From the NCBI GenBank assembly GCA_002898235.1, contig BEIL01000003.1, positions 2,264 to 66,263 of the forward strand: a stretch of 64,000 bases of DNA, given 5' to 3'. This document shows, piece after piece, positions 24,472 to 62,700 of this stretch; positions within the stretch are counted from its first letter, which is position 1; every line of letters begins with the position of its first letter. Source of the DNA: a bacterium HR35. Its GTDB lineage: Bacteria; Patescibacteriota; Minisyncoccia; UBA6257; HR35. A program made the translations under genes and the position numbers. Under the pieces are notes generated by a model. It was not told the DNA's origin. It did no database searches and worked only from the letters and a program-made list of their open reading frames with translations.

Positions 24472-25536
24472 ATGAGTCAAACAATGGTTACTGAACAAAA
24501 TCAAGGATTAAAAGTGAAAGTTAAGAATATAACAATAGGTAGTATTTTGGAGGGAGTTGTTATCAGTAAGAAAAAGGGTGAGCTTTTTGTTGATTTGAGT
24601 CCTTTTGGAACAGGAAGGCTTTATGGGATTTTTTTCAAAGAGTGTGAGGATTTAGCAAAAAAAGTAAATGTTGGTGATAAAGTTGGAGTAAAGGTTGTTG
24701 GTTTAAATGATGGTTATGGAAATTTAGAAATTGTTCTTCAAGATACTTTTCAAATTAATCGCTGGCAAAAGATTTTGGAATATCAAAGAAATAAAACAGT
24801 TTTGGAATTGGAAATTAAAGAAGCTAATCGAGGTGGTTGGATTATTGAGCTTGAAGGCATTCAGGGTTTCATTCCTGTTTCTCAACTTTCGCCTGAATAT
24901 TATCCTCGAGTAAGTAATAATGATAAAGAGGCTATTTTAGAACATCTTAAAAAATTTGTTGGTCAAAAAATTAAATGCGTTGTTTGGTTAGCTGATCCTC
25001 AAAAAAACAAGTTAGTTCTTTCAGAAAAATTAACAAAAGCTGAAATTTATCAAAAGGTTTTAGAAAGTCTTCAGGTTGGTCAAATTTTAGATGTTAAAGT
25101 TGTTGGTATCAGTTCCTTTGGTGTTTTTGTTAGGTTTCATACTAACCCTGATATGGATGGTTTAATTCATATTATGGAAATTCCTCCAGAGTTAGCAAAT
25201 GACCTTCAAAAAAATTTTCCTTTAGGCAAAATCTTAAAAGCAAAAATTATTCAAATAAAACAAGATAGAGTTAATTTTTCTCTTAAAGATTTGAGGCCTG
25301 ATCCTTGGTTAATGGTTAAAGAATTTTATCGTGAAGGCTCTCAAGTCCAGGGGCTGGTTAAGGAAAAAAATAATATCTTTGGTGTAGCTGAAATTTCAGT
25401 AGGAGAGTATGGAAGTATTCAGGGTTATGTTTTTGAAGGAGTAGAAAAATTGGAGGTTAATAAGAGCTATAATTTTTTAATCGAAACTTTAAATCCCAAA
25501 GAAAAACATCTTGTTTTAAAACCGATTGATGCTTAG
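24472..25536 (+). CDS. rpsA: S1 RNA-binding-domain protein (short ribosomal protein S1 homologue, about 4 S1 repeats).
   Basis: Repeated G-x-V-x-G-x-V-(x)n-G-V/A-F-V S1 motifs (GSILEGVVISKKKGELFVDL, GQILDVKVVGISSFGVFVRF, and others). Confidence 0.6.
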   Translation: MSQTMVTEQNQGLKVKVKNITIGSILEGVVISKKKGELFVDLSPFGTGRLYGIFFKECEDLAKKVNVGDKVGVKVVGLNDGYGNLEIVLQDTFQINRWQKILEYQRNKTVLELEIKEANRGGWIIELEGIQGFIPVSQLSPEYYPRVSNNDKEAILEHLKKFVGQKIKCVVWLADPQKNKLVLSEKLTKAEIYQKVLESLQVGQILDVKVVGISSFGVFVRFHTNPDMDGLIHIMEIPPELANDLQKNFPLGKILKAKIIQIKQDRVNFSLKDLRPDPWLMVKEFYREGSQVQGLVKEKNNIFGVAEISVGEYGSIQGYVFEGVEKLEVNKSYNFLIETLNPKEKHLVLKPIDA

Positions 25537-28500
25537 AAATAATTATCTTAAATACTTTATTTTAGTTTTCTCTTTAATTCTTTTTTTCTCAATTTTATTT
25601 GTTGGTGAGAAAAAAATCAAAGAAGAGCAAAGCGTTTCTTTTCCTGTATTTTTAGAAAAGGTAAAAAATGGCGAAGTTAAAGAAATTAACTTAGAAAACG
25701 AAACTAATTTTACTTTTATTACTCAAGACAATAAAGTTTTTAATTCGAATAAGGATCCTAATGTTAGCTTTTGGGAAGTCTTCGAAAAAGAAAAAATACC
25801 TAAAGAAGTTTATCTGAAGATTAAAATTACTAAAAAAACAGAAGCTTCTTGGCTTCAACTTTTTCTTTCTTTTCTAATTAATGTTATTCCAATAATAATT
25901 ATTACTTGGTTTATTTGGCAGATTTTCAGACAGACGCAAAGAGGTACAAGTCAAATTTTTTCTTTTGGCAAATCAGGAATTAAAGTTTATAATCCCAATG
26001 ATCCAAATCGAATAACTTTTAAAGATGTAGCTGGCCTTGAAGAAGCTAAACAAGAACTTATGGAAGTTGTTGAATTTTTAAAAAATCCTGAAAAGTTTTT
26101 CAAAATTGGAGCTCGAATTCCTAAAGGAGTATTACTAGTGGGGCCGCCTGGAACCGGGAAAACAATGTTGGCTCAAGCAACAGCCTCGGAGGCTGGTGTT
26201 CCTTTCTTTTATATTTCTGGTTCTGAGTTTGTTGAAATGTTTGTCGGTGTTGGTGCTTCAGTAACTGGAGACACACCGATATTAATAAAAAGAGGAAACA
26301 AAATTAAGTTAACAACTATCGGTAAGTTTGTTGATAAATTTTATCAAGAAAATGAAAGTGGTTTTGTTAAATTTATAGACGGTTATGAAACTTTAGGTTA
26401 TGAACCACAAAGAAAAGTTTATTTTGGCAAGCCAATCTGGACAAATATTCGTGGCGTTTTTAGACATAAAGTCAATGAGATTTATGAAATTTATTTTAGA
26501 GGGGGGAAAATAAAAACAACTGGAGATCATAGCGTTTTTGTCAGAGAAAAAAATAGAATTATTCCTAAAAAAGTAAGTGAATTAAAAGTTGGTGATTGTT
26601 TAGTAAATTTACCATTTAAACGAAGAAGTGTTTTTGTTAAAGGAATAGGCACAACTCATAAGATTTCAACTTTTGATCTTGAAGAAAAAGAGATTTATTT
26701 AGATTTATATGAGAAAGAGTATAATAAAGCTTTGTTTAGTTACCAGTTTGCTTTAGAAAATAGAAATATTTTGAGTCAAGCGAAAATAGGAAAAATTTTA
26801 GGATTAGCGCAGACTACAATTAAAGATTGGCAATTAGGAAGGAGAAGGCCGAAAATATTTTCGAGCTTTAATATCTTTAGATTTAAAATCCCGCCTAAAA
26901 TAAAAGTGGATTTAGATTTGATGAAACTTCTTGGCTATTATGTTGCTGAAGGGAGAACAACAGATTATTTCACTCAATTTGTTTTTGGGATTCATGAAAG
27001 AGATTTGATTAAAGATTGTTCAAATTTAATTGAAAAGATTTTTAACATAACACCCCATATCAAAGATTGTCCTGAAACTAACTCCTGTCGAATTACTATT
27101 TACTCATCAATTATTAGCAAATTTTTTAAAAAGCACTGTGGTACTGGGGCCAAGAAAAAGCATATTCCTCCTTTCTTGTGGCAAATTCCCTTTCCTTATT
27201 TCAAATCATTTTTAGAAGGTCTTTACAGGGGTGATGGTTACATTACAAAAGAAGGAAAGTTAATTATTACCACAACTTCAAGAAGGTTAGCTTTAGAGCT
27301 TATTTGGCTTTCGGCTCTCCATGGAATTCAAGTTGGACTAAGAAAAACAAAATCGCCTGAAAGAAAAATAAGAGAGAAAATTCTTAAGCCATCTAAATAT
27401 TACCTAGTAATTTTTGGAAAGACATCTAATCCTTTTCTTAAAAATAAAAAGACTTCTCAACCTAAAAAACCAATAATAACAAAAATAATTAAAAAACCCT
27501 ATGATGGTTATGTTTATGACCTTTGTGGTTGTGATAATGAAGCATTTTTTGGAGGAGAAAAACCTATTTTACTTCATAACAGTCGCGTCCGTGATGCATT
27601 TTCTGTTGCTAAAAGAAATCAACCTTGTTTAACAGGTGATACAATTATTACTTTAAGCAATGGAGAAGAAATTACTATTAAAGAGATTTATGAGAAAAAA
27701 TTGATTGGCAAAGAGGTTTTAGCTTTTGATGAAAATCTTAATCTTAAAACCGCAAAAATAATTGGTGTTAGCAAAACACCCGATCAAGAAATATTAAAAA
27801 TATCTACAATCATCGACACCATAAAATTAACTCCCGATCATCTTTTACCTACTTTGAAAGATGGCAGGTTAGAATGGGTAGAAGCCAAAGAACTAAAAGA
27901 GGGAGATTTCATAGCTTATCCAAAGAAAATTCCTGAAGAATTTAGGATTCAATCAATAAGAACTCTAACTTTGATTCCTGAAGAAACAAGAATTTACTTC
28001 AAAAACAATTGTCTGCCTAAAATATATGGAAATAAAAAGTATTATCATTCAGTTAAATTAAAAGAAATATATTTAGATAAAATTGACGAAGAAAACATTG
28101 CTTGGATTGCTTTAGGCAAAGGTGGTTTTACTGATTCTTATCTCTACAGAATACCAAAATATTTGAATGAAGATATTCTTTATCTTAAAGGCTTAATAGA
28201 TGGTGATGGTTCTTATCATAAAAACAAATTCAATATTACTTTTGTTAATACTGAGTTGTATCTTCACCAAGAAGTTAAAAAGATTGTTTTAGATAATTTT
28301 GGAATTTCTGCGAAGACTTATAAAAACAAAAAATATTATCGCAATCTTCCTCAAGGGAAACCACCTCAAAATCTTAAAGATTGTTATACCACTCATATTA
28401 ATAACAAGTTAGTTAAAATCATCCTGAAAAACATTGATGAGATTCTTCTTTCTTTACCAAACAATCTTATAGCTGCTTGGATAAGGGGCATTTTTGATAG

Positions 28501-30151
28501 TGATGGTTATGTAGCCAGTATCAAAAATCATCCCAAGATTGTAATTACTTCTACTGACGAAACGTTGAACAAAAAAATTAGATCTGCTTTATTAAGATTA
28601 GGAATAATTGGCTATTGCACTGCTTCTAATAATTTTGGTAATATTGAAATTACAGGAAAGGAAAATATTAAACGTTTTAGAGAAATAGTTGGCTCTAATC
28701 ATCCTAAGAAATTGCAGAGATTAAAAAATTTAAATTTAGAAGGAGTAAGATTTTGGCGCTTAAATCAGATTCCATTAGGTTTGTTGCTTAAAGAAGCTAG
28801 GATTTCTTTAGGGATAGGGCAAAGGAGTTTTAAAAATGGGCATATGATTTCTTGTTGGGAAAGAAATATTCATTTACCATCTTTAGAGAATTTGGAAATA
28901 AAAGTTAAAGAAATGGAGAAAATAATTAGTGAAAAAAATTTATCTCCAACTCAAAGCTTTGAAAAATTAAAATCATTTGTCTACGGTGATGTAAGTTGGG
29001 TAAAAATTAAAAAAATTGAAAAAGTAAATCAAAAAGAAGACGTTTATGATCTTATTTTAGATAAATATCATAATTTCATTGCTAATAATCATTTTGTTCA
29101 TAATTGCATTTTGTTCATTGATGAGCTTGACGCTATTGGAAAAATAAGAGGAGCGGGAATTACTGGCGCTCATGAAGAAAGAGAGCAAACATTAAATCAA
29201 ATTTTAGTTGAAATGGATGGTTTTGAAAAAGGAACAAAAGTCGTTGTTTTAGCGGCGACAAATAGACCTGATGTTCTTGATCCAGCTCTTCTTCGTCCAG
29301 GAAGATTTGACCGCAAAATTGTTTTGGATTTGCCTGATATTAAAGCTAGAGAGGAAATTTTAAAAATTCATTTAAGAGATAAAAGAGTTGGTAAAGTTAA
29401 TTTAAGGCAAGTAGCTGAAAGAACTCCTGGTTTTTCTGGAGCTGATTTAGCTAATTTATGTAATGAAGCTGCAATTTTAGCAGCCAGAAGAAACAAAGAA
29501 TTTATCACTCAACAAGAACTTTTAGATTCAATTGAAAAAGTTTTATTAGGTCCAGAAAGAAAAACAAAAGCCTATTCAAAAAAAGAAAAAGAAATTGCTG
29601 CTTATCATGAAGCTGGCCATGCCATTGTTGCTCATTATTTGCCTTATACTAATCCAGTTCAAAAAATTTCAATTATTTCTCGCGGTCGAGCAGGTGGTTA
29701 TACTTTAAAAACACCCCTTGAAGACAGAAGCTTTTATTTTAAGAAAGAATTTTTAGATGAATTGGCTTCAATGCTTGGTGGTTATGCTGCTGAAAAATTA
29801 ATTTTTAACGATATTACTACTGGAGCCAGTAATGATTTAGAAATTGCTACTGATTTAACTAGACAATTAGTAACTAAATTTGGAATGTCAGAAAAACTTG
29901 GTCCAATTTCAATCTCCCAAAAACCAAAAGAATTTGTTTTAGAAAAAGAGTACTCTGAAAAAACAGCTGAACTTATCGATGAAGAAGTAAAAAATATTAT
30001 TCACCAAGCATTAGAAAGAGCAACAAAGGTTTTAGAAATTAAAAAAGATAAATTAGAAAAAGTTGCTCAAGTTTTAATCAAAAAAGAAGTGATTGAGAAA
30101 AAACAATTTGAGAGATTAGTTGGCGAGAAAAAAGGAAGTTTAAATATTTAA
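25526..30151 (+). CDS. ftsH: ATP-dependent zinc metalloprotease FtsH, interrupted by two in-frame inteins; the mature extein is about 607 aa.
   Basis: Walker A GPPGTGKT, the FVEMFVGVGA | SRVRD | CILFIDELDA extein blocks, the HEAGHA zinc site and an N-terminal TM anchor; a 1541-aa ORF. Confidence 0.9.
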   Translation: MMLRNNYLKYFILVFSLILFFSILFVGEKKIKEEQSVSFPVFLEKVKNGEVKEINLENETNFTFITQDNKVFNSNKDPNVSFWEVFEKEKIPKEVYLKIKITKKTEASWLQLFLSFLINVIPIIIITWFIWQIFRQTQRGTSQIFSFGKSGIKVYNPNDPNRITFKDVAGLEEAKQELMEVVEFLKNPEKFFKIGARIPKGVLLVGPPGTGKTMLAQATASEAGVPFFYISGSEFVEMFVGVGASVTGDTPILIKRGNKIKLTTIGKFVDKFYQENESGFVKFIDGYETLGYEPQRKVYFGKPIWTNIRGVFRHKVNEIYEIYFRGGKIKTTGDHSVFVREKNRIIPKKVSELKVGDCLVNLPFKRRSVFVKGIGTTHKISTFDLEEKEIYLDLYEKEYNKALFSYQFALENRNILSQAKIGKILGLAQTTIKDWQLGRRRPKIFSSFNIFRFKIPPKIKVDLDLMKLLGYYVAEGRTTDYFTQFVFGIHERDLIKDCSNLIEKIFNITPHIKDCPETNSCRITIYSSIISKFFKKHCGTGAKKKHIPPFLWQIPFPYFKSFLEGLYRGDGYITKEGKLIITTTSRRLALELIWLSALHGIQVGLRKTKSPERKIREKILKPSKYYLVIFGKTSNPFLKNKKTSQPKKPIITKIIKKPYDGYVYDLCGCDNEAFFGGEKPILLHNSRVRDAFSVAKRNQPCLTGDTIITLSNGEEITIKEIYEKKLIGKEVLAFDENLNLKTAKIIGVSKTPDQEILKISTIIDTIKLTPDHLLPTLKDGRLEWVEAKELKEGDFIAYPKKIPEEFRIQSIRTLTLIPEETRIYFKNNCLPKIYGNKKYYHSVKLKEIYLDKIDEENIAWIALGKGGFTDSYLYRIPKYLNEDILYLKGLIDGDGSYHKNKFNITFVNTELYLHQEVKKIVLDNFGISAKTYKNKKYYRNLPQGKPPQNLKDCYTTHINNKLVKIILKNIDEILLSLPNNLIAAWIRGIFDSDGYVASIKNHPKIVITSTDETLNKKIRSALLRLGIIGYCTASNNFGNIEITGKENIKRFREIVGSNHPKKLQRLKNLNLEGVRFWRLNQIPLGLLLKEARISLGIGQRSFKNGHMISCWERNIHLPSLENLEIKVKEMEKIISEKNLSPTQSFEKLKSFVYGDVSWVKIKKIEKVNQKEDVYDLILDKYHNFIANNHFVHNCILFIDELDAIGKIRGAGITGAHEEREQTLNQILVEMDGFEKGTKVVVLAATNRPDVLDPALLRPGRFDRKIVLDLPDIKAREEILKIHLRDKRVGKVNLRQVAERTPGFSGADLANLCNEAAILAARRNKEFITQQELLDSIEKVLLGPERKTKAYSKKEKEIAAYHEAGHAIVAHYLPYTNPVQKISIISRGRAGGYTLKTPLEDRSFYFKKEFLDELASMLGGYAAEKLIFNDITTGASNDLEIATDLTRQLVTKFGMSEKLGPISISQKPKEFVLEKEYSEKTAELIDEEVKNIIHQALERATKVLEIKKDKLEKVAQVLIKKEVIEKKQFERLVGEKKGSLNI
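26258..27580 (+). mobile_element. Intein 1 in FtsH (441 aa; Ser1 ... His-Asn, +1 Ser) with a LAGLIDADG-type homing-endonuclease domain.
   Basis: Starts with SVTGDTPIL (block A with Ser as the nucleophile) and ends ILLHN|SRVRD. LAGLIDADG-like motifs are LLGYYVAEGRT and LEGLYRGDGYI. It is inserted between FtsH GVGA and SRVRD. Confidence 0.75.
27626..29104 (+). mobile_element. Intein 2 in FtsH (493 aa; Cys1 ... His-Asn, +1 Cys) with a LAGLIDADG homing-endonuclease domain.
   Basis: Starts with CLTGDTIITL (classic block A) and ends FVHN|CILFIDELDA. LAGLIDADG motifs are LKGLIDGDGSY and WIRGIFDSDGYV. It is inserted immediately before the Walker B region. Confidence 0.8.
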
Positions 30152-30155
30152 AAAA

Positions 30156-31256
30156 TTAAGGACCAAGATTTAGACAAACATATCTAATTGGGCCAGTAGT
30201 TGAACAAGTGCTACCAAAAGAACATTTTTCCGTACCGCTTACTCCTCCAGGATCATAAGCTTTAACACAAATCTCTTTTGCTCCTGTTGTATAATTTCCA
30301 TTTATTACCCTACTATTTAAATCAATTGAAGCTATTTTTCCGCTTACATACATATCTCCATTAACATATAGTCTAAATGGATCTGGATTTGTTATTCCGA
30401 TGCCTATGTTACCATTATTTCCTTTAACTGTAAAAACTTCGCTGCCACGGTCATTAGTTACTCTAAATCTTGAATCTTGACCGGTATCTATTCTAATGGT
30501 GGTAATTGCATTCCAATCCCCTACTTCTTCATTGCCAATTATAAATTCATTTGTATCTACATAAATGTATTTATTAAAAGCATCTAAGAAATTTATCTTT
30601 TTTCCGGAATTACCAGAAAAACACAACATATACGGATCATAATTACAATAATAAATATCATCGCCTATTCCTATAGTTCCTATTACTTGTAATTTCTTCT
30701 GAGGGTTCATTGTTCCAATGCCAATATTTCCATTATTTAAAATTGTCATTAAATGCTTTACATCATCGCCTCCAGGTGGATCTGGATCATTAACAAATGA
30801 TGTTTTTCCATAAGAAGGAGCAGTATTTGTAATCCAAAATAATCCATCATATCCACCATCAAACCACATATCTCTTGAAAAATCACCAAATCCTATTTTC
30901 CCAACTGCTTCATTATCGCTAACAATTTCAAATTTTGTTCGCGGATAAAGAGTTCCTACTCCAACATTGCCTCCGTAAGGATTAAGAGATAAATTATATG
31001 GTTTGCCGGTTTCATCTTTGCTCTGAATAATACCATAGTCAGCGTAATTTGATAATAATTTATTATCCTCAGAAATTGGTTCGTTAGGAGTAAGATAGAT
31101 ATTTTGATTTAATTTAAGATTATCATCTGACGATATTTTTGTTCTTTTGCCTATAAAGTAATTTTTAAAGGAATCAAAAGAAGGTCTATTAAAATAATAA
31201 AAATAAACGAAAATAAAAATAAGCCCTCCTAAAAAAATCAAATATTCTTTTTTCAT
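30156..31256 (-). CDS. Secreted repeat protein (tail-fibre-like G-N-V/I-G-I-G-T-x-x-P repeats), putative adhesin.
   Basis: N-terminal anchor MKKEYLIFLGGLIFIFVYFYYF; repeats GNVGVGTLYPRTKFEI, GNIGIGTMNPQKKLQV, GNIGIGITNPDPFRLYV; a Cys-rich C-terminus. Confidence 0.5.
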   Translation of the reverse strand: MKKEYLIFLGGLIFIFVYFYYFNRPSFDSFKNYFIGKRTKISSDDNLKLNQNIYLTPNEPISEDNKLLSNYADYGIIQSKDETGKPYNLSLNPYGGNVGVGTLYPRTKFEIVSDNEAVGKIGFGDFSRDMWFDGGYDGLFWITNTAPSYGKTSFVNDPDPPGGDDVKHLMTILNNGNIGIGTMNPQKKLQVIGTIGIGDDIYYCNYDPYMLCFSGNSGKKINFLDAFNKYIYVDTNEFIIGNEEVGDWNAITTIRIDTGQDSRFRVTNDRGSEVFTVKGNNGNIGIGITNPDPFRLYVNGDMYVSGKIASIDLNSRVINGNYTTGAKEICVKAYDPGGVSGTEKCSFGSTCSTTGPIRYVCLNLGP

Positions 31257-31291
31257 CTTAAAAGTATTATAATTATAACTCTATGTTACTT

Positions 31292-32614
31292 CTAGTACAA
31301 ATCTGGCCAGCAAATCCCTAAATTTGTTGAAGGAATAACTTGTCTAGAAATTCCGGGTCCGCTCCATTCAAGAAGCAATCTCTCACCACCTGCATTCTCA
31401 TAATGGTCTATTCTTAATGGATACCAACCGGGAGAAGAAAAGGTATAATTAGCAGAATACGTGGTAGCGCCTTGATCTCTCCATTGATCCACTAAGATTT
31501 GCCAGTTAACCCACAACCTAACACCATCATCGCTAGTTACATAAAAAGTATAGGTTCCTGCAACTGGTATATAAACACAACCATAAACTCTAAGCGACCA
31601 ACCATCAGCTTTTCCAAGGGGATTAAGATCAGTAAAATCTATAGTTGGTTTTACTATTCTCATAATTTTATCTTTAAACGAAAGATATGGATTTGGATCA
31701 TAGCTCCCAAAACCTTCAACAATAATTCCTCCTTTTTGCACTATTCTTCTCGGAGGCCATCCTGGAGAATCTAAAAAAACAGCATCAACTAAATTTCCTT
31801 CATAAATTGTTAATTTAGTAGTCGGTGTCGTCGTCCCGATGCCGATATTATTATTAACATCGATTACTATTGCAGGATTATTAAAATTTCTCGTAAAATC
31901 ACGTGCTATTTTGAATTTGTCTCCATCGGCGTTATCTATTCCCATTATCCAATCTCTTACTCCTGGAATAGCAAAATGAAGCATAGGATTAGCGGTTGCT
32001 CCGCCCCAAGCAGTAGAAATAGCTATTCTAACATCAGCCGAAGGTCCAGTATTATCGTTCCTTATTAAAAGTTGCAATTCTGAGTTAGAATTTGAAGCTA
32101 TATGAACTTTTTGTTCTGGTGTCGTCGTCCCGATGCCGACGTTGCCAGGAAAACTATAATTTCCTCCACCTGTGTTTGCTCCAAATTGGCCTGAAGAAAC
32201 ATTAGCTGCATTGATTGTTCCTAAAAAAGTATCAGCTTTAACATTACCAGCAACATGTAAAGTTGTTGTAGGTGTTGTTGTTCCAATTCCTAATCTTTTG
32301 TTTGTATTGTCCCAAAAGAGATTGTTGTCACCAGAAATAGTTGATGCTCCTGTCCAAAATGCTACTTGACCAGCTGAACCCGAGCCGCCTATTCCTAAGC
32401 TACCAGTATATCTTACTAAAACATTTTGGGTTGAGGAGGTCATTACTAAATAACCAGCTCCAGGCCAAGTTGTTTCTCCCCAATTAAGATAAGGTAATGG
32501 CTGGCAGTAAGCACCTTGTCCTAAAGATTCTTTGGGTAAAAAAAAGTAAAAAATAATGTTGGTTAAAGCAAATAAAAGCGAAAGAGCAAGAGATATTATT
32601 AACCCCTTTTTCAT
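31292..32614 (-). CDS. Secreted repeat protein with three IGIGTTTP repeats and a C-terminal PA14 domain; putative carbohydrate-binding adhesin.
   Basis: Repeat 1 is LGIGTTTPTTTLHVAG, repeat 2 is NVGIGTTTPEQKVHIA and repeat 3 is NIGIGTTTPTTKLTIYEG. A C-terminal YTFYVTSDDGVRLWVNWQ...YPLRIDHYENAGGERLLLEW is PA14-like. Confidence 0.55.
   Translation of the reverse strand: MKKGLIISLALSLLFALTNIIFYFFLPKESLGQGAYCQPLPYLNWGETTWPGAGYLVMTSSTQNVLVRYTGSLGIGGSGSAGQVAFWTGASTISGDNNLFWDNTNKRLGIGTTTPTTTLHVAGNVKADTFLGTINAANVSSGQFGANTGGGNYSFPGNVGIGTTTPEQKVHIASNSNSELQLLIRNDNTGPSADVRIAISTAWGGATANPMLHFAIPGVRDWIMGIDNADGDKFKIARDFTRNFNNPAIVIDVNNNIGIGTTTPTTKLTIYEGNLVDAVFLDSPGWPPRRIVQKGGIIVEGFGSYDPNPYLSFKDKIMRIVKPTIDFTDLNPLGKADGWSLRVYGCVYIPVAGTYTFYVTSDDGVRLWVNWQILVDQWRDQGATTYSANYTFSSPGWYPLRIDHYENAGGERLLLEWSGPGISRQVIPSTNLGICWPDLY
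31824..31845. repeat. 22-nt direct repeat ggtgtcgtcgtcccgatgccga (copy 1); copy 2 at 32118..32139 in the same frame encodes G-I-G-T-T-T-P.
   Basis: Exact 22/22 nt identity 294 bp (98 codons) apart inside CDS 31292..32614. Confidence 0.8.
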
Positions 32615-60825: not shown

Positions 60826-60898
60826 CGGGGTGTGGCGCAATGGCTAGCGCGCTGGCATGGGGTGCCAGAGGTTGCGGGTTCGAGTCCCGCCACCCCGA
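60826..60898 (+). tRNA. tRNA-Pro (anticodon GGG).
   Basis: Manual cloverleaf: acceptor cggggtg/caccccg, anticodon stem ctggc/gccag with loop atggggt, T-loop ttcgagt. Confidence 0.7.
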
Positions 60899-60906
60899 AA
60901 AAAATA

Positions 60907-62700
60907 ATGGAAAAGTTTAAGCTTGAAGGAGAAAGAAGAGAAGGAGGGTGGACTAGAAGAAAATTTTTGGCTGCTATGGGTGCTTTCTTAGCGGCTTGCA
61001 GTTTAAAGCTAACCGAGGAATCCCCAATGCCTGAACCGCAATCTGGTATCGAAGAACCAAGGATAAATATGGGTAATCCTGAACTGCCATCTAGCATTGA
61101 GAAACCAAGGATAAATATAGATGATTTAATAAATAGTGGACTATTGAGAAGTGAGGAGAAAAGATTTTTTTCTAATCCTTTTGTTATGGAAGAAAAGTCG
61201 GGGCGGGTAATATGGACTGGAATGCAGCAAACTTTATTAACTATATACGACATTCAGAGATTGGAAACTGAAATTCAGCAAGGAAATTTAGTTTTAGTAG
61301 AATTCACTGAAACAACAGCTGCTCTTTTTAATTTTCCTCCAGCTCAAAGAAGAATTTTAGCTATTAGAACACCATCGGGAAATATTATTCCCGCATACTG
61401 GCTTAATCCCCAAAAATTAGCCCCTAAATTTGAAGAATTATCAAACCTCAAAGTTGTCCAGATAGATGAAGAAACAGTTTTAAAAAATGTTGCTCAAATA
61501 GTTAAAGAGAAAAAATTAGGAGTTGAAATCAAACCGGGAGATCTTATTAGAATTGGTAAAGAGATTAGGCTTCCTAAAAATTGGGCCAATGGGCGGGTTC
61601 TTGGTTTAAGATATGGTGTTGGGGGAAATAATAGAGAATGGATTATTTTTCTATACACGCAAAATGGAGAATATTCGGGCTTTATTACAGTACCACCCAA
61701 CGTTTTTGTAGAAGAAATCTCTAATAAATTGAAAGATTCTTCGTCTCATTATAATCTTAGACACAGTCTGGATGATGTAATTCTTGGAGAATCTTTCTCT
61801 AACAGGCAAATTTCTGGAATAGTTTTTAATAACATACAAAACATATTTAAAAATCTTTCAAACCCAAATCTCCAAGAATTCGAAATAGAAAGATTTCAGT
61901 TTAGAGTGTTAAATAGAATAACCTTAGGAAACTCTAGGACAATGTATGTAGTAGAGATAAGCGAAGAAGGAAGGAGCATTATCGCTACTTTTCATCAAGC
62001 TGGCAATTTTTATCATTTTTACTTGAATAATGCTATATCAAGTAGATTTAGTGGAACCAGAGCTTTATTGAGTGCTCAAGAATATCTATCACAACCATAC
62101 TTTGTTCCTTCAATTTTGGGAATAATTAGAAACCTAACGGCTAAATATAGCAAAATATTAACTGGCCTAACTTTAATTCCTTCTATTTTTTTTGAATTTC
62201 AACATTATTCTGAAATAATGAAAAAGGAAGTAGATTTTTGGGCAAATTTAGACAAAGAAGAAAGAGAAAAATTGTTAGCCTTAGGTACAAAAATTACTAG
62301 CAAAGATGAATCACTTAAGTTTAATTATACTCTTCCAATAACTGGTTTAATACTTATAGATGAAGCAGAATTAGCAAATGCGAAAAATAATACTCGTTTT
62401 GAGTTCCCTGTTTATTTGGTTGAAGGTTTTTTTCCCGATAGAAATCAATTAAAAATCTTTGAACCAGAATCTGAAAGTTTTAACAGCTCTTATTACGGTG
62501 TTGTTGTTTTAAAAGTAGATGAAAAATATTACCTTATAGTTGAAAACGAGAGAGGTTGTTTTTCAATCGATTTGTCTAAAAAAGAGCAAATTTCTGAAGA
62601 GGAATATAAAACTTATCAAAAAGCTGGAATAGAAATCATACATTTAAAAAACGGCAAAATTTTAGTTGTTTTCAACTTAAAACCGGAAGAAAAAAAATAA
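60907..62700 (+). CDS. Hypothetical lipoprotein with an RR-containing signal peptide and a lipobox (start trimmed to the ATG at 60907; the tracked ORF start lies inside tRNA-Pro).
   Basis: MEKFKLEGERREGGWTRRKFLAAMGAFLAAC|S is a twin-Arg-like n-region, an h-region and an LAAC lipobox; an internal tandem repeat EEPRINMGNPELPSS / EKPRINIDDLINSG follows. Confidence 0.4.
   Translation: MEKFKLEGERREGGWTRRKFLAAMGAFLAACSLKLTEESPMPEPQSGIEEPRINMGNPELPSSIEKPRINIDDLINSGLLRSEEKRFFSNPFVMEEKSGRVIWTGMQQTLLTIYDIQRLETEIQQGNLVLVEFTETTAALFNFPPAQRRILAIRTPSGNIIPAYWLNPQKLAPKFEELSNLKVVQIDEETVLKNVAQIVKEKKLGVEIKPGDLIRIGKEIRLPKNWANGRVLGLRYGVGGNNREWIIFLYTQNGEYSGFITVPPNVFVEEISNKLKDSSSHYNLRHSLDDVILGESFSNRQISGIVFNNIQNIFKNLSNPNLQEFEIERFQFRVLNRITLGNSRTMYVVEISEEGRSIIATFHQAGNFYHFYLNNAISSRFSGTRALLSAQEYLSQPYFVPSILGIIRNLTAKYSKILTGLTLIPSIFFEFQHYSEIMKKEVDFWANLDKEEREKLLALGTKITSKDESLKFNYTLPITGLILIDEAELANAKNNTRFEFPVYLVEGFFPDRNQLKIFEPESESFNSSYYGVVVLKVDEKYYLIVENERGCFSIDLSKKEQISEEEYKTYQKAGIEIIHLKNGKILVVFNLKPEEKK

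Follow-up and report, generated by a model that had tools for sequence, protein, structure and literature searches.

What are the two large segments that interrupt the AAA+ module encoded by the ftsH gene of bacterium HR35 (Patescibacteriota), and do they have the properties of mobile inteins? The gene lies in a stretch of 64,000 nucleotides of contig BEIL01000003.1 (assembly GCA_002898235.1, positions 2,264 to 66,263), referred to below as the window. An earlier reading of this DNA (the original prediction) had recognised in it two homing-endonuclease inteins within a single open reading frame (ORF). Our analysis of their anatomy, conservation and fold, and of the mobility signature observed in their relatives, makes it highly probable that this ftsH gene carries two independent canonical class-1 inteins, each with a monomeric homing endonuclease of the double-motif LAGLIDADG type.

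The host gene and its splice junctions

The interrupted protein is an FtsH protease, as had been proposed. The ORF scores 710.7 bits against the NCBIfam model TIGR01241 (FtsH_fam; cut-off 600), its Pfam matches are FtsH_ext, a split AAA domain, AAA_lid_3 and Peptidase_M41, and the motifs that mark members of the family (Walker A and B, the second region of homology and HEXXH) were all located in it, with the catalytic residues of FtsH intact. Each of the strings quoted in the original prediction occurs once in the translation of this ORF (25526-30151, plus strand) and at the place assigned to it there; the interval 26258-29104 opens with the first intein 1 codon and closes with the final codon of intein 2, and the lengths of 441 and 493 residues, as well as the spacing of 15 residues, proved exact (Table 1).

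Excision of both inserts leaves an FtsH of 607 residues and 68.9 kDa (a mass of about 67 kDa had been expected for the spliced product). This joined extein aligns end to end with the intein-free FtsH of Thermotoga maritima (7tdo; E 4e-172), with zero gaps at either junction. It is also gapless over both junctions in the alignment with FtsH 2ce7, and its ATPase core is gapless against full-length FtsH of Escherichia coli (7vhp; query residues 1-143 correspond to chain residues 181-323). The 15-residue spacer between the inteins has an aligned counterpart of 15 residues in T. maritima FtsH, which we take to be the helix that links the pore loop to the Walker B strand in the solved FtsH structures. 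The spacer contributes the Ser that serves intein 1 as +1 nucleophile and the Pro at position -1 of intein 2.

Intein 1 is inserted three residues past the pore-loop F-V-G and intein 2 directly ahead of the Walker B strand C-I-L-F-I-D-E, in agreement with the earlier placement of both sites just upstream of Walker B. The insertion points fall after residues 230 and 245 of the 644-residue E. coli FtsH chain; the numbering of the older literature is presumably higher by 3. The +1 Cys of intein 2 is a native residue in the intein-free T. maritima FtsH, whose flanks match too, and the +1 position of intein 1 is Ala in T. maritima FtsH and, we assume, Ser in E. coli FtsH. The boundary of intein 1 could formally be shifted by one residue, since Ser both starts the intein and occupies the +1 position; we place it at A/S...HN/S (insertion points and splice junctions are marked by a slash throughout), as this is the sole assignment that satisfies intein chemistry.

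The TTG start codon of ftsH lies within the end of the upstream gene for an S1-domain protein (24472-25536), the overlap being 11 nt (window positions 25526-25536). An ATG follows the TTG at 25529, which leaves the true start of ftsH uncertain by one codon.

Table 1. Features of the ftsH locus and intein insertion sites in FtsH (nucleotide positions refer to the window)
Feature	Position	Strand	Size	Sequence or remark
ftsH precursor ORF	25526-30151	+	1541 aa, 177 kDa	Uninterrupted frame
N-extein	25526-26257	+	244 aa	Two hydrophobic segments; ends ...FVGVGA
Walker A	26141-26164			GPPGTGKT
Pore loop	26237-26248			MFVG
Intein 1 (site b)	26258-27580	+	441 aa, 51.2 kDa	Protein residues 245-685
Intein 1, block A				SVTGDTPILI; Ser1 (Ser245 of precursor)
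Intein 1, block B	within 26513-26542			TGDH (T88, H91)
Intein 1, putative helix-turn-helix-like segment	26771-26839			From predicted model and alignments
Intein 1, LAGLIDADG-1	26927-26959			LLGYYVAEGRT; acidic residue Glu231 of intein, then G232
Intein 1, LAGLIDADG-2	27209-27244			FLEGLYRGDGYI; acidic residue Asp326 of intein, then G327
Intein 1, blocks F/G	27506-27580			Ending VYDLCGCDNEAFFGGEKPILLHN
Spacer extein piece	27581-27625	+	15 aa, 45 nt	Between the inteins
Intein 2 (site c)	27626-29104	+	493 aa, 57.0 kDa	Protein residues 701-1193
Intein 2, block A				CLTGDTIITL; Cys1 (Cys701 of precursor)
Intein 2, block B	within 27824-27850			TPDH (T69, H72)
Intein 2, LAGLIDADG-1	28184-28216			LKGLIDGDGSY; Asp194 of intein, then G195
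Intein 2, LAGLIDADG-2	28478-28513			WIRGIFDSDGYV; Asp293 of intein, then G294
Intein 2, putative helical XRE-like, helix-turn-helix-like segment	28781-28882			From predicted model and alignments
Intein 2, blocks F/G	29039-29104			DVYDLILDKYHNFIANNHFVHN
C-extein	29105-30151	+	348 aa + stop	First residue Cys+1
Walker B	29105-29134			
Sensor-1 and second region of homology	29252-29314			
Zinc site	29606-29620			HEAGH
Intein-less target of site b, reconstructed				TTTGTTGAAATGTTTGTCGGTGTTGGTGCT/AGTCGCGTCCGTGATGCATTTTCTGTTGCT
Intein-less target of site c, reconstructed				GCATTTTCTGTTGCTAAAAGAAATCAACCT/TGCATTTTGTTCATTGATGAGCTTGACGCT
Site a				GTGK/T; Walker A; Cys1
Site b				GVGA/S; just past the pore loop; Ser1; intein 1 of the window; by far the most frequent site
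Site c				P/C; ahead of Walker B; Cys1; intein 2 of the window
Site d				AA/TNRPD; sensor-1; Ser1

Splicing and endonuclease domains

Both inserts match the Pfam profiles Intein_splicing (PF14890; curated cut-off 35.8 bits) and LAGLIDADG_3 (PF14528; curated cut-off 22.5 bits), with 47.4 and 44.3 bits for intein 1 and 99.5 and 91.9 bits for intein 2, scores that put these two predicted inteins far past chance. The NCBIfam model TIGR01445 (intein_Nterm; cut-off 24.5) adds 38.3 and 38.7 bits, respectively. The splice motifs and +1 nucleophiles described earlier are in place: intein 1 ends with ...LLHN/S (His-Asn, then Ser+1) and intein 2 with ...FVHN/C (His-Asn, then Cys+1), and every residue required by class-1 splicing chemistry is present in both. 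LAGLIDADG motifs also occur in both inserts, as claimed, but a single motif had been listed for intein 1 and its second one, FLEGLYRGDGYI, had been overlooked. Ser1 is rarer than Cys1 among inteins, a point made in the original prediction, and the present data set agrees with it; in the family of intein 1 it is invariant.

Conservation was assessed in two alignments, one of 15 inteins from the position of intein 1 (site b; 42-58% identical to it) and one of 13 from the position of intein 2 (site c; 35-54% identical to it). The former has as invariant features S1, T88/D90/H91, E231-G232, D326-G327, a VYD.CG..NE.FF.G block and H440-N441, the latter C1, T69/H72, D194-G195, D291/D293-G294, VYDL and N493, and the copies in the window keep all of them. 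The mean majority fraction in the endonuclease domain is 0.66 versus 0.65 in the HINT domain for the family of intein 1, and 0.63 versus 0.67 for that of intein 2. The endonuclease domain is thus conserved like the splicing domain, which speaks for selection on the nuclease in both families. In a library of representatives at 50% identity, 70 relatives of intein 1 were found at E<=1e-30.

AlphaFold2 models of the two inteins reached a predicted local distance difference test score (pLDDT) of 88.8 and a predicted template modelling score (pTM) of 0.86 for intein 1, and 89.0 and 0.88 for intein 2; from these predicted structures alone a HINT fold and a LAGLIDADG fold can be assigned. In Foldseek searches the model of intein 1 matched PI-PkoII (2cw7; E 7.6e-24) and TliVMA (best E 9.6e-24), and that of intein 2 matched TliVMA (7qss; E 9.9e-22), PI-PkoII (2cw7; E 4.0e-20) and PI-PfuI, with PI-SceI, mini-inteins, I-DmoI and I-Tsp061I as further matches. 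By sequence, the nearest solved structure is PI-PkoII for intein 1 (E 2.7e-16; three collinear segments) and the Ssp DnaB mini-intein (1mi8) for intein 2. It is therefore well supported that both inserts are complete class-1 inteins, in which a double-motif LAGLIDADG endonuclease domain lies within the HINT domain. As for the putative helix-turn-helix-like segments, several homologues carry precomputed helix-turn-helix matches in Pfam.

The closest well-characterized counterpart is PI-PkoII, intein 2 of the Thermococcus kodakarensis DNA polymerase, which likewise combines a HINT domain with an inserted double-motif LAGLIDADG domain and extra DNA-binding parts. Its structure ranks first or second among the fold matches of both models (template modelling score about 0.64-0.68 for the predicted structures). 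PI-PkoII is, however, archaeal, resides in a DNA polymerase and is only 14-19% identical to the inteins of the window, whereas intein 1 uses Ser1 and Ser+1 and has a protease as its host. Other high-ranking fold matches of both models, TliVMA and PhoVMA (7qss, 7qsu, 7qst), PI-PfuI (1dq3) and PI-SceI (1vde), are also intein endonucleases of nucleotide-binding enzymes, but their hosts are subunit A of the V-ATPase and ribonucleotide reductase, they come from other lineages, and the identity is 11-20%.

In a direct BLASTP comparison inteins 1 and 2 share about 27% identity, confined to short blocks (the endonuclease core and the N-terminal block), and the best scores between the two families reach about 40 bits, whereas members of one family score above 500 bits with each other. 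Judged by these comparisons, the two are mutually unrelated, independent elements, as the original prediction had it. An origin by duplication of one intein was considered and ruled out on the same figures. No additional copy or free-standing relative of either intein was detected by tblastn in the 64-kb window.

Proposed splicing and homing

Translation of the gene would yield a 177-kDa precursor whose AAA+ fold is broken at two points. Splicing would start with an N-O acyl shift at Ser1 of intein 1 or an N-S acyl shift at Cys1 of intein 2. Transesterification to the +1 residue (Ser or Cys) would follow, then the terminal Asn would cyclise, and a last acyl shift would end the reaction. The 244-residue N-extein, the 15-residue spacer and the 348-residue C-extein would in this way be joined into a normal 68.9-kDa FtsH. 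Because its fold is interrupted beside the pore loop and at Walker B, the precursor is presumably not an active ATPase, in which case both splicing events would be required for an active protease. As for the DNA, an allele lacking the intein would be cut by each endonuclease at the point where its own element inserts, and gene conversion would let the element spread; the target centres of the two separate elements lie 45 bp apart.

FtsH inteins in other genomes

A protein search with the two-intein segment returned 731 matches at E<=1e-5. Insertion sites were mapped by aligning each of the listed matches to the extein of the window, and site counts were drawn from 131 proteins (the best 120 of the 731 matches plus 11 cluster members), almost all of which are FtsH proteins with inteins. 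Among the matches listed, the taxa are mainly Patescibacteria (Pacebacteria, Nomurabacteria, Nealsonbacteria, Parcubacteria), with Eisenbacteria and Planctomycetota also represented. Four sites, a to d, are used (Table 1). Site b alone is occupied in 70 of the 131 proteins, b+d and a+b in 15 each, and c alone in 2; b+c occurs with two full-size inteins in 10 proteins and with one mini-intein in 5. One protein (P0123, 1968 aa) carries b+c+d as three full-size inteins. Across the homologues, occupancy of one site is thus independent of that of the others.

The combination found in the window is therefore present in at least 15 other proteins, and triple occupancy exists as well. The view that the locus is unusual found only partial support, and none for the arrangement itself; such an arrangement is unreported in the literature searched.

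A profile scan with the site-c alignment over one genome per GTDB species gave 29 loci, from Pacebacteria, Saccharibacteria, Acidobacteriota, Planctomycetota, Eisenbacteria, Methylomirabilota, Clostridia and Chloroflexota, of which five have b+c. One locus in a metagenome-assembled genome (MAG) of Blastocatellia (L004:1566-7634) encodes three full-size inteins at a+b+c in a frame of 2023 residues. At the closest GTDB locus (L001, Pacebacteria) intein 2 is 66% identical and the C-extein 85% identical to those of the window; this locus begins with N/SRVRDAFAVAKKNQP/C, and its ftsH gene thus very probably carries both inteins. The genome from which the window comes was absent from the GTDB representatives.

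Could the double insertion be an artefact, such as strain variants assembled wrongly into one sequence, or the gene be dead? The assembly is evidently of the metagenome type and comes from an uncultured organism, and the exact protein is absent from a collection of 15 billion proteins. Yet the 4.6-kb frame is unbroken, FtsH and both inteins retain all their catalytic residues, and b+c with the same 15-residue spacer recurs in assemblies that are independent and derive from different samples and phyla (P0001, P0003, P0004, P0006, P0007, P0018, P0022, L016, L018, L024 and others). We consider an artefact or pseudogene extremely improbable.

Several variants were seen among these relatives. Mini-inteins of 160-225 residues, without an endonuclease, occupy b or c beside full-size neighbours (P0034, P0048, P0050, P0041, P0052, P0038, and the GTDB loci L014, L017, L026 and L028), so that the homing cycle is represented in its decay stage too within the FtsH-intein family. 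The penultimate His of block G is replaced in P0018, P0031, P0105 and L024 (VKN/C, TKN/C, TEN/C and LSN/S), which may reflect an altered chemistry of C-terminal cleavage. A bacterial-type FtsH with a site-c intein also occurs at the end of a 105-kb contig labelled Nitrosotalea sp., an ammonia-oxidising archaeon (L015; DATIWG010000036.1); the contig could be mis-binned or the gene transferred.

Mobility of the inteins

Site occupancy varies among FtsH proteins whose exteins are 79-82% identical to that of the window: P0013, P0017 and P0019 have b only, P0012 has a+b and P0001 has b+c. P0001, an FtsH-intein allele from the JGI data, has the host protein, the two sites and the 15-residue spacer in common with the window; alleles of this type belong to other species-level lineages, and further alleles have a+b, b+d or b+c+d.

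The clearest case emerged from a DNA-level comparison of P0001 with P0004 (L033:916-5508 versus L034:3001-7572). Their site-c inteins are 98.3% identical, compared with 67.4% for the N-exteins, 77.6% for the C-exteins and only 57.8% for the site-b inteins located 45 bp upstream of site c. This contrast points to recent lateral homing by the site-c intein alone, and indicates that two inteins act as separate elements even at a distance of 15 codons. For site b, 430 of 5778 pairs show an intein identity more than 8 points above that of the exteins (e.g. 92% versus 71%). The tract of co-conversion around the site-c inteins of P0001 and P0004 was uninformative, since the flanking sequence is conserved in any case and the ungapped comparison is disrupted by an indel. 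Scans of viral_contigs with the family alignments, aimed at possible phage vectors, gave weak partial matches only (L030-L032), which beyond IMG/VR say nothing for or against such vectors.

Site-d inteins are homologous to site-b inteins: within one protein the two are 43-51% identical (about 370 bits) and both have Ser1, as seen in P0002, P0005, P0009, P0014, P0020, P0021, P0023 and others. A single intein lineage has thus transferred ectopically from one site of the gene to another.

Some points count against our main reading, in which the gene carries two independent class-1 inteins with homing endonucleases. The window inteins are more diverged from their nearest relatives (70% identity for intein 1 and 54-66% for intein 2) than the exteins are (81-85%); against P0001 the values are 70% and 54% for inteins 1 and 2, 74% for the N-extein, 86% for the C-extein and 81% for the whole extein. 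For this reason recent mobility is demonstrated for relatives and not for the window copies, which look like long-resident ones, given this divergence and their host-like content of guanine plus cytosine (GC). Intein 2 departs from its family consensus at two conserved places, with TPDH in block B where the family has TGNH, and FDSDG where it has FDGDG. That the two copies splice and cut DNA is something we infer from their conserved residues, and a second, intein-free ftsH gene is possible elsewhere in the genome, beyond the 64-kb window.

The GC content is 0.296 and 0.280 in the inteins, 0.314 in the extein and 0.294 in the window. A recent foreign insertion visible by composition is ruled out, as the inteins have the GC content of their host.

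Such figures bring up the possibility that splicing is retained but that one or both endonucleases are inactive remnants, the inteins persisting as fixed, vertically inherited passengers. Inteins that diverge more than their exteins, and whose GC content is fully ameliorated, are what long vertical residence would leave behind, and the endonuclease-free mini-inteins at the same sites in other lineages demonstrate that endonucleases do decay in this family. However, each intein has kept its two LAGLIDADG motifs with their acidic residues intact, all of these being invariant in the families, the endonuclease domains are conserved as well as the splicing domains, and recent lateral transfer within both intein families is clear. 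We regard inactive endonucleases as conceivable here, though rather doubtful, and favour the presence of two class-1 inteins whose endonucleases are complete.

FtsH as an intein host

Inteins are known to cluster in the P-loop, Walker B and sensor motifs of MCM, RFC-S and DnaB, several sites sometimes being occupied together, according to a 2016 survey (PMC4760082). The four FtsH sites sit at analogous motifs, with the difference that MCM, RFC-S and DnaB are replication proteins and FtsH is a membrane protease. FtsH thus represents a non-replication AAA+ host with inteins at motif positions that match those of MCM and RFC. In that survey FtsH is outside the top 15 bacterial intein hosts and goes unmentioned in the text (PMC4760082). 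No description of FtsH inteins was found in the full-text literature searched or in the text and tables of the survey, although rare FtsH entries are possible in its supplementary tables. FtsH is a host protein whose inteins abound in the databases and are apparently undescribed in the literature.

The location of the insertion points within catalytic motifs of the ATPase, which means that the precursor must be inactive, invites the idea that the inteins have been co-opted as post-translational switches, the protease being gated by conditional splicing that responds to redox state (via Cys1 and Cys+1 of intein 2), temperature or substrate. Novikova et al. argued that intein clustering in ATPase motifs suggests selective retention (PMC4760082), and conditional splicing is documented for other inteins in three further reports (PMC6195587, PMC5790916, PMC5238726). 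No sequence feature, however, sets the FtsH inteins apart from selfish ones; the endonuclease domains, superfluous for a pure switch, are kept; and the occurrence of b only, a+b or b+c among exteins about 80% identical fits parasitism better than conserved regulation. A regulatory role of the two inteins is accordingly quite unlikely in our view.

A broader form of this idea, in which FtsH is a hitherto undescribed intein hot-spot whose inteins may be kept in lineages such as this one since conditional splicing gates a membrane quality-control protease, draws on the four sites in AAA+ catalytic motifs, on the presence of up to three inteins at once, and on the spread across Patescibacteria and several other uncultured phyla. 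We think it improbable as well; if true, it would extend the concept of inteins as post-translational sensors from replication proteins to proteostasis.

With the two inteins read as independent class-1 elements, the current understanding of intein function is unchanged: the arrangement is mechanistically ordinary, real but not exceptional. Its practical consequences concern annotation. The proteins of 1500-2000 residues that are recorded, in Patescibacteria and other MAGs, as a giant FtsH or as an AAA family ATPase are ordinary FtsH proteins with one to three inteins. The automatic name given by JGI is 'ATP-dependent Zn protease/intein/homing endonuclease', and the NCBI names make no mention of inteins. 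NCBIfam has dedicated models for intein-containing GyrA, RtcB and Tes, and the NCBIfam matches obtained here included no such model for FtsH.

Natural alleles occur in full, mini, single, double and triple form, and this rich series is also suited to tests of independent homing at sites 45 bp apart, for which the contrast of 98% versus 58% in relatives already says that adjacent inteins home independently, and to tests of whether a 15-residue extein between two inteins constrains the order of splicing.

Genomic context

The neighbours of ftsH are rpoC, rpoB, gyrA, the gene for the S1-domain protein, dnaK and tRNA genes. The proximity of rpoB, rpoC, gyrA and dnaK indicates that this ftsH is a chromosomal housekeeping copy, and it is the single copy within the window. 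No inteins were found in the nearby rpoB, rpoC, gyrA and dnaK genes. Among the matches listed, the closest FtsH homologues are from Pacebacteria/Paceibacterota. The window is thus read as core chromosome belonging to a Paceibacteria-like bacterium of the CPR.

Two further observations concern other genes of the window. An ORF of 622 residues (60832-62700) has a GTG start inside a tRNA-Pro gene (60826-60898), so that this start is probably wrong; no Pfam match at E<=1e-5 was found for this ORF. Downstream of ftsH, on the minus strand, two adjacent ORFs of 366 and 440 residues (30156-32614) share an N-terminal hydrophobic segment and G-N-[IV]-G-I-G-T motifs; Pfam assigns a PA14 domain to the C-terminal part of the second and gives no match for the first, and the pair possibly encodes surface or adhesin-like proteins.

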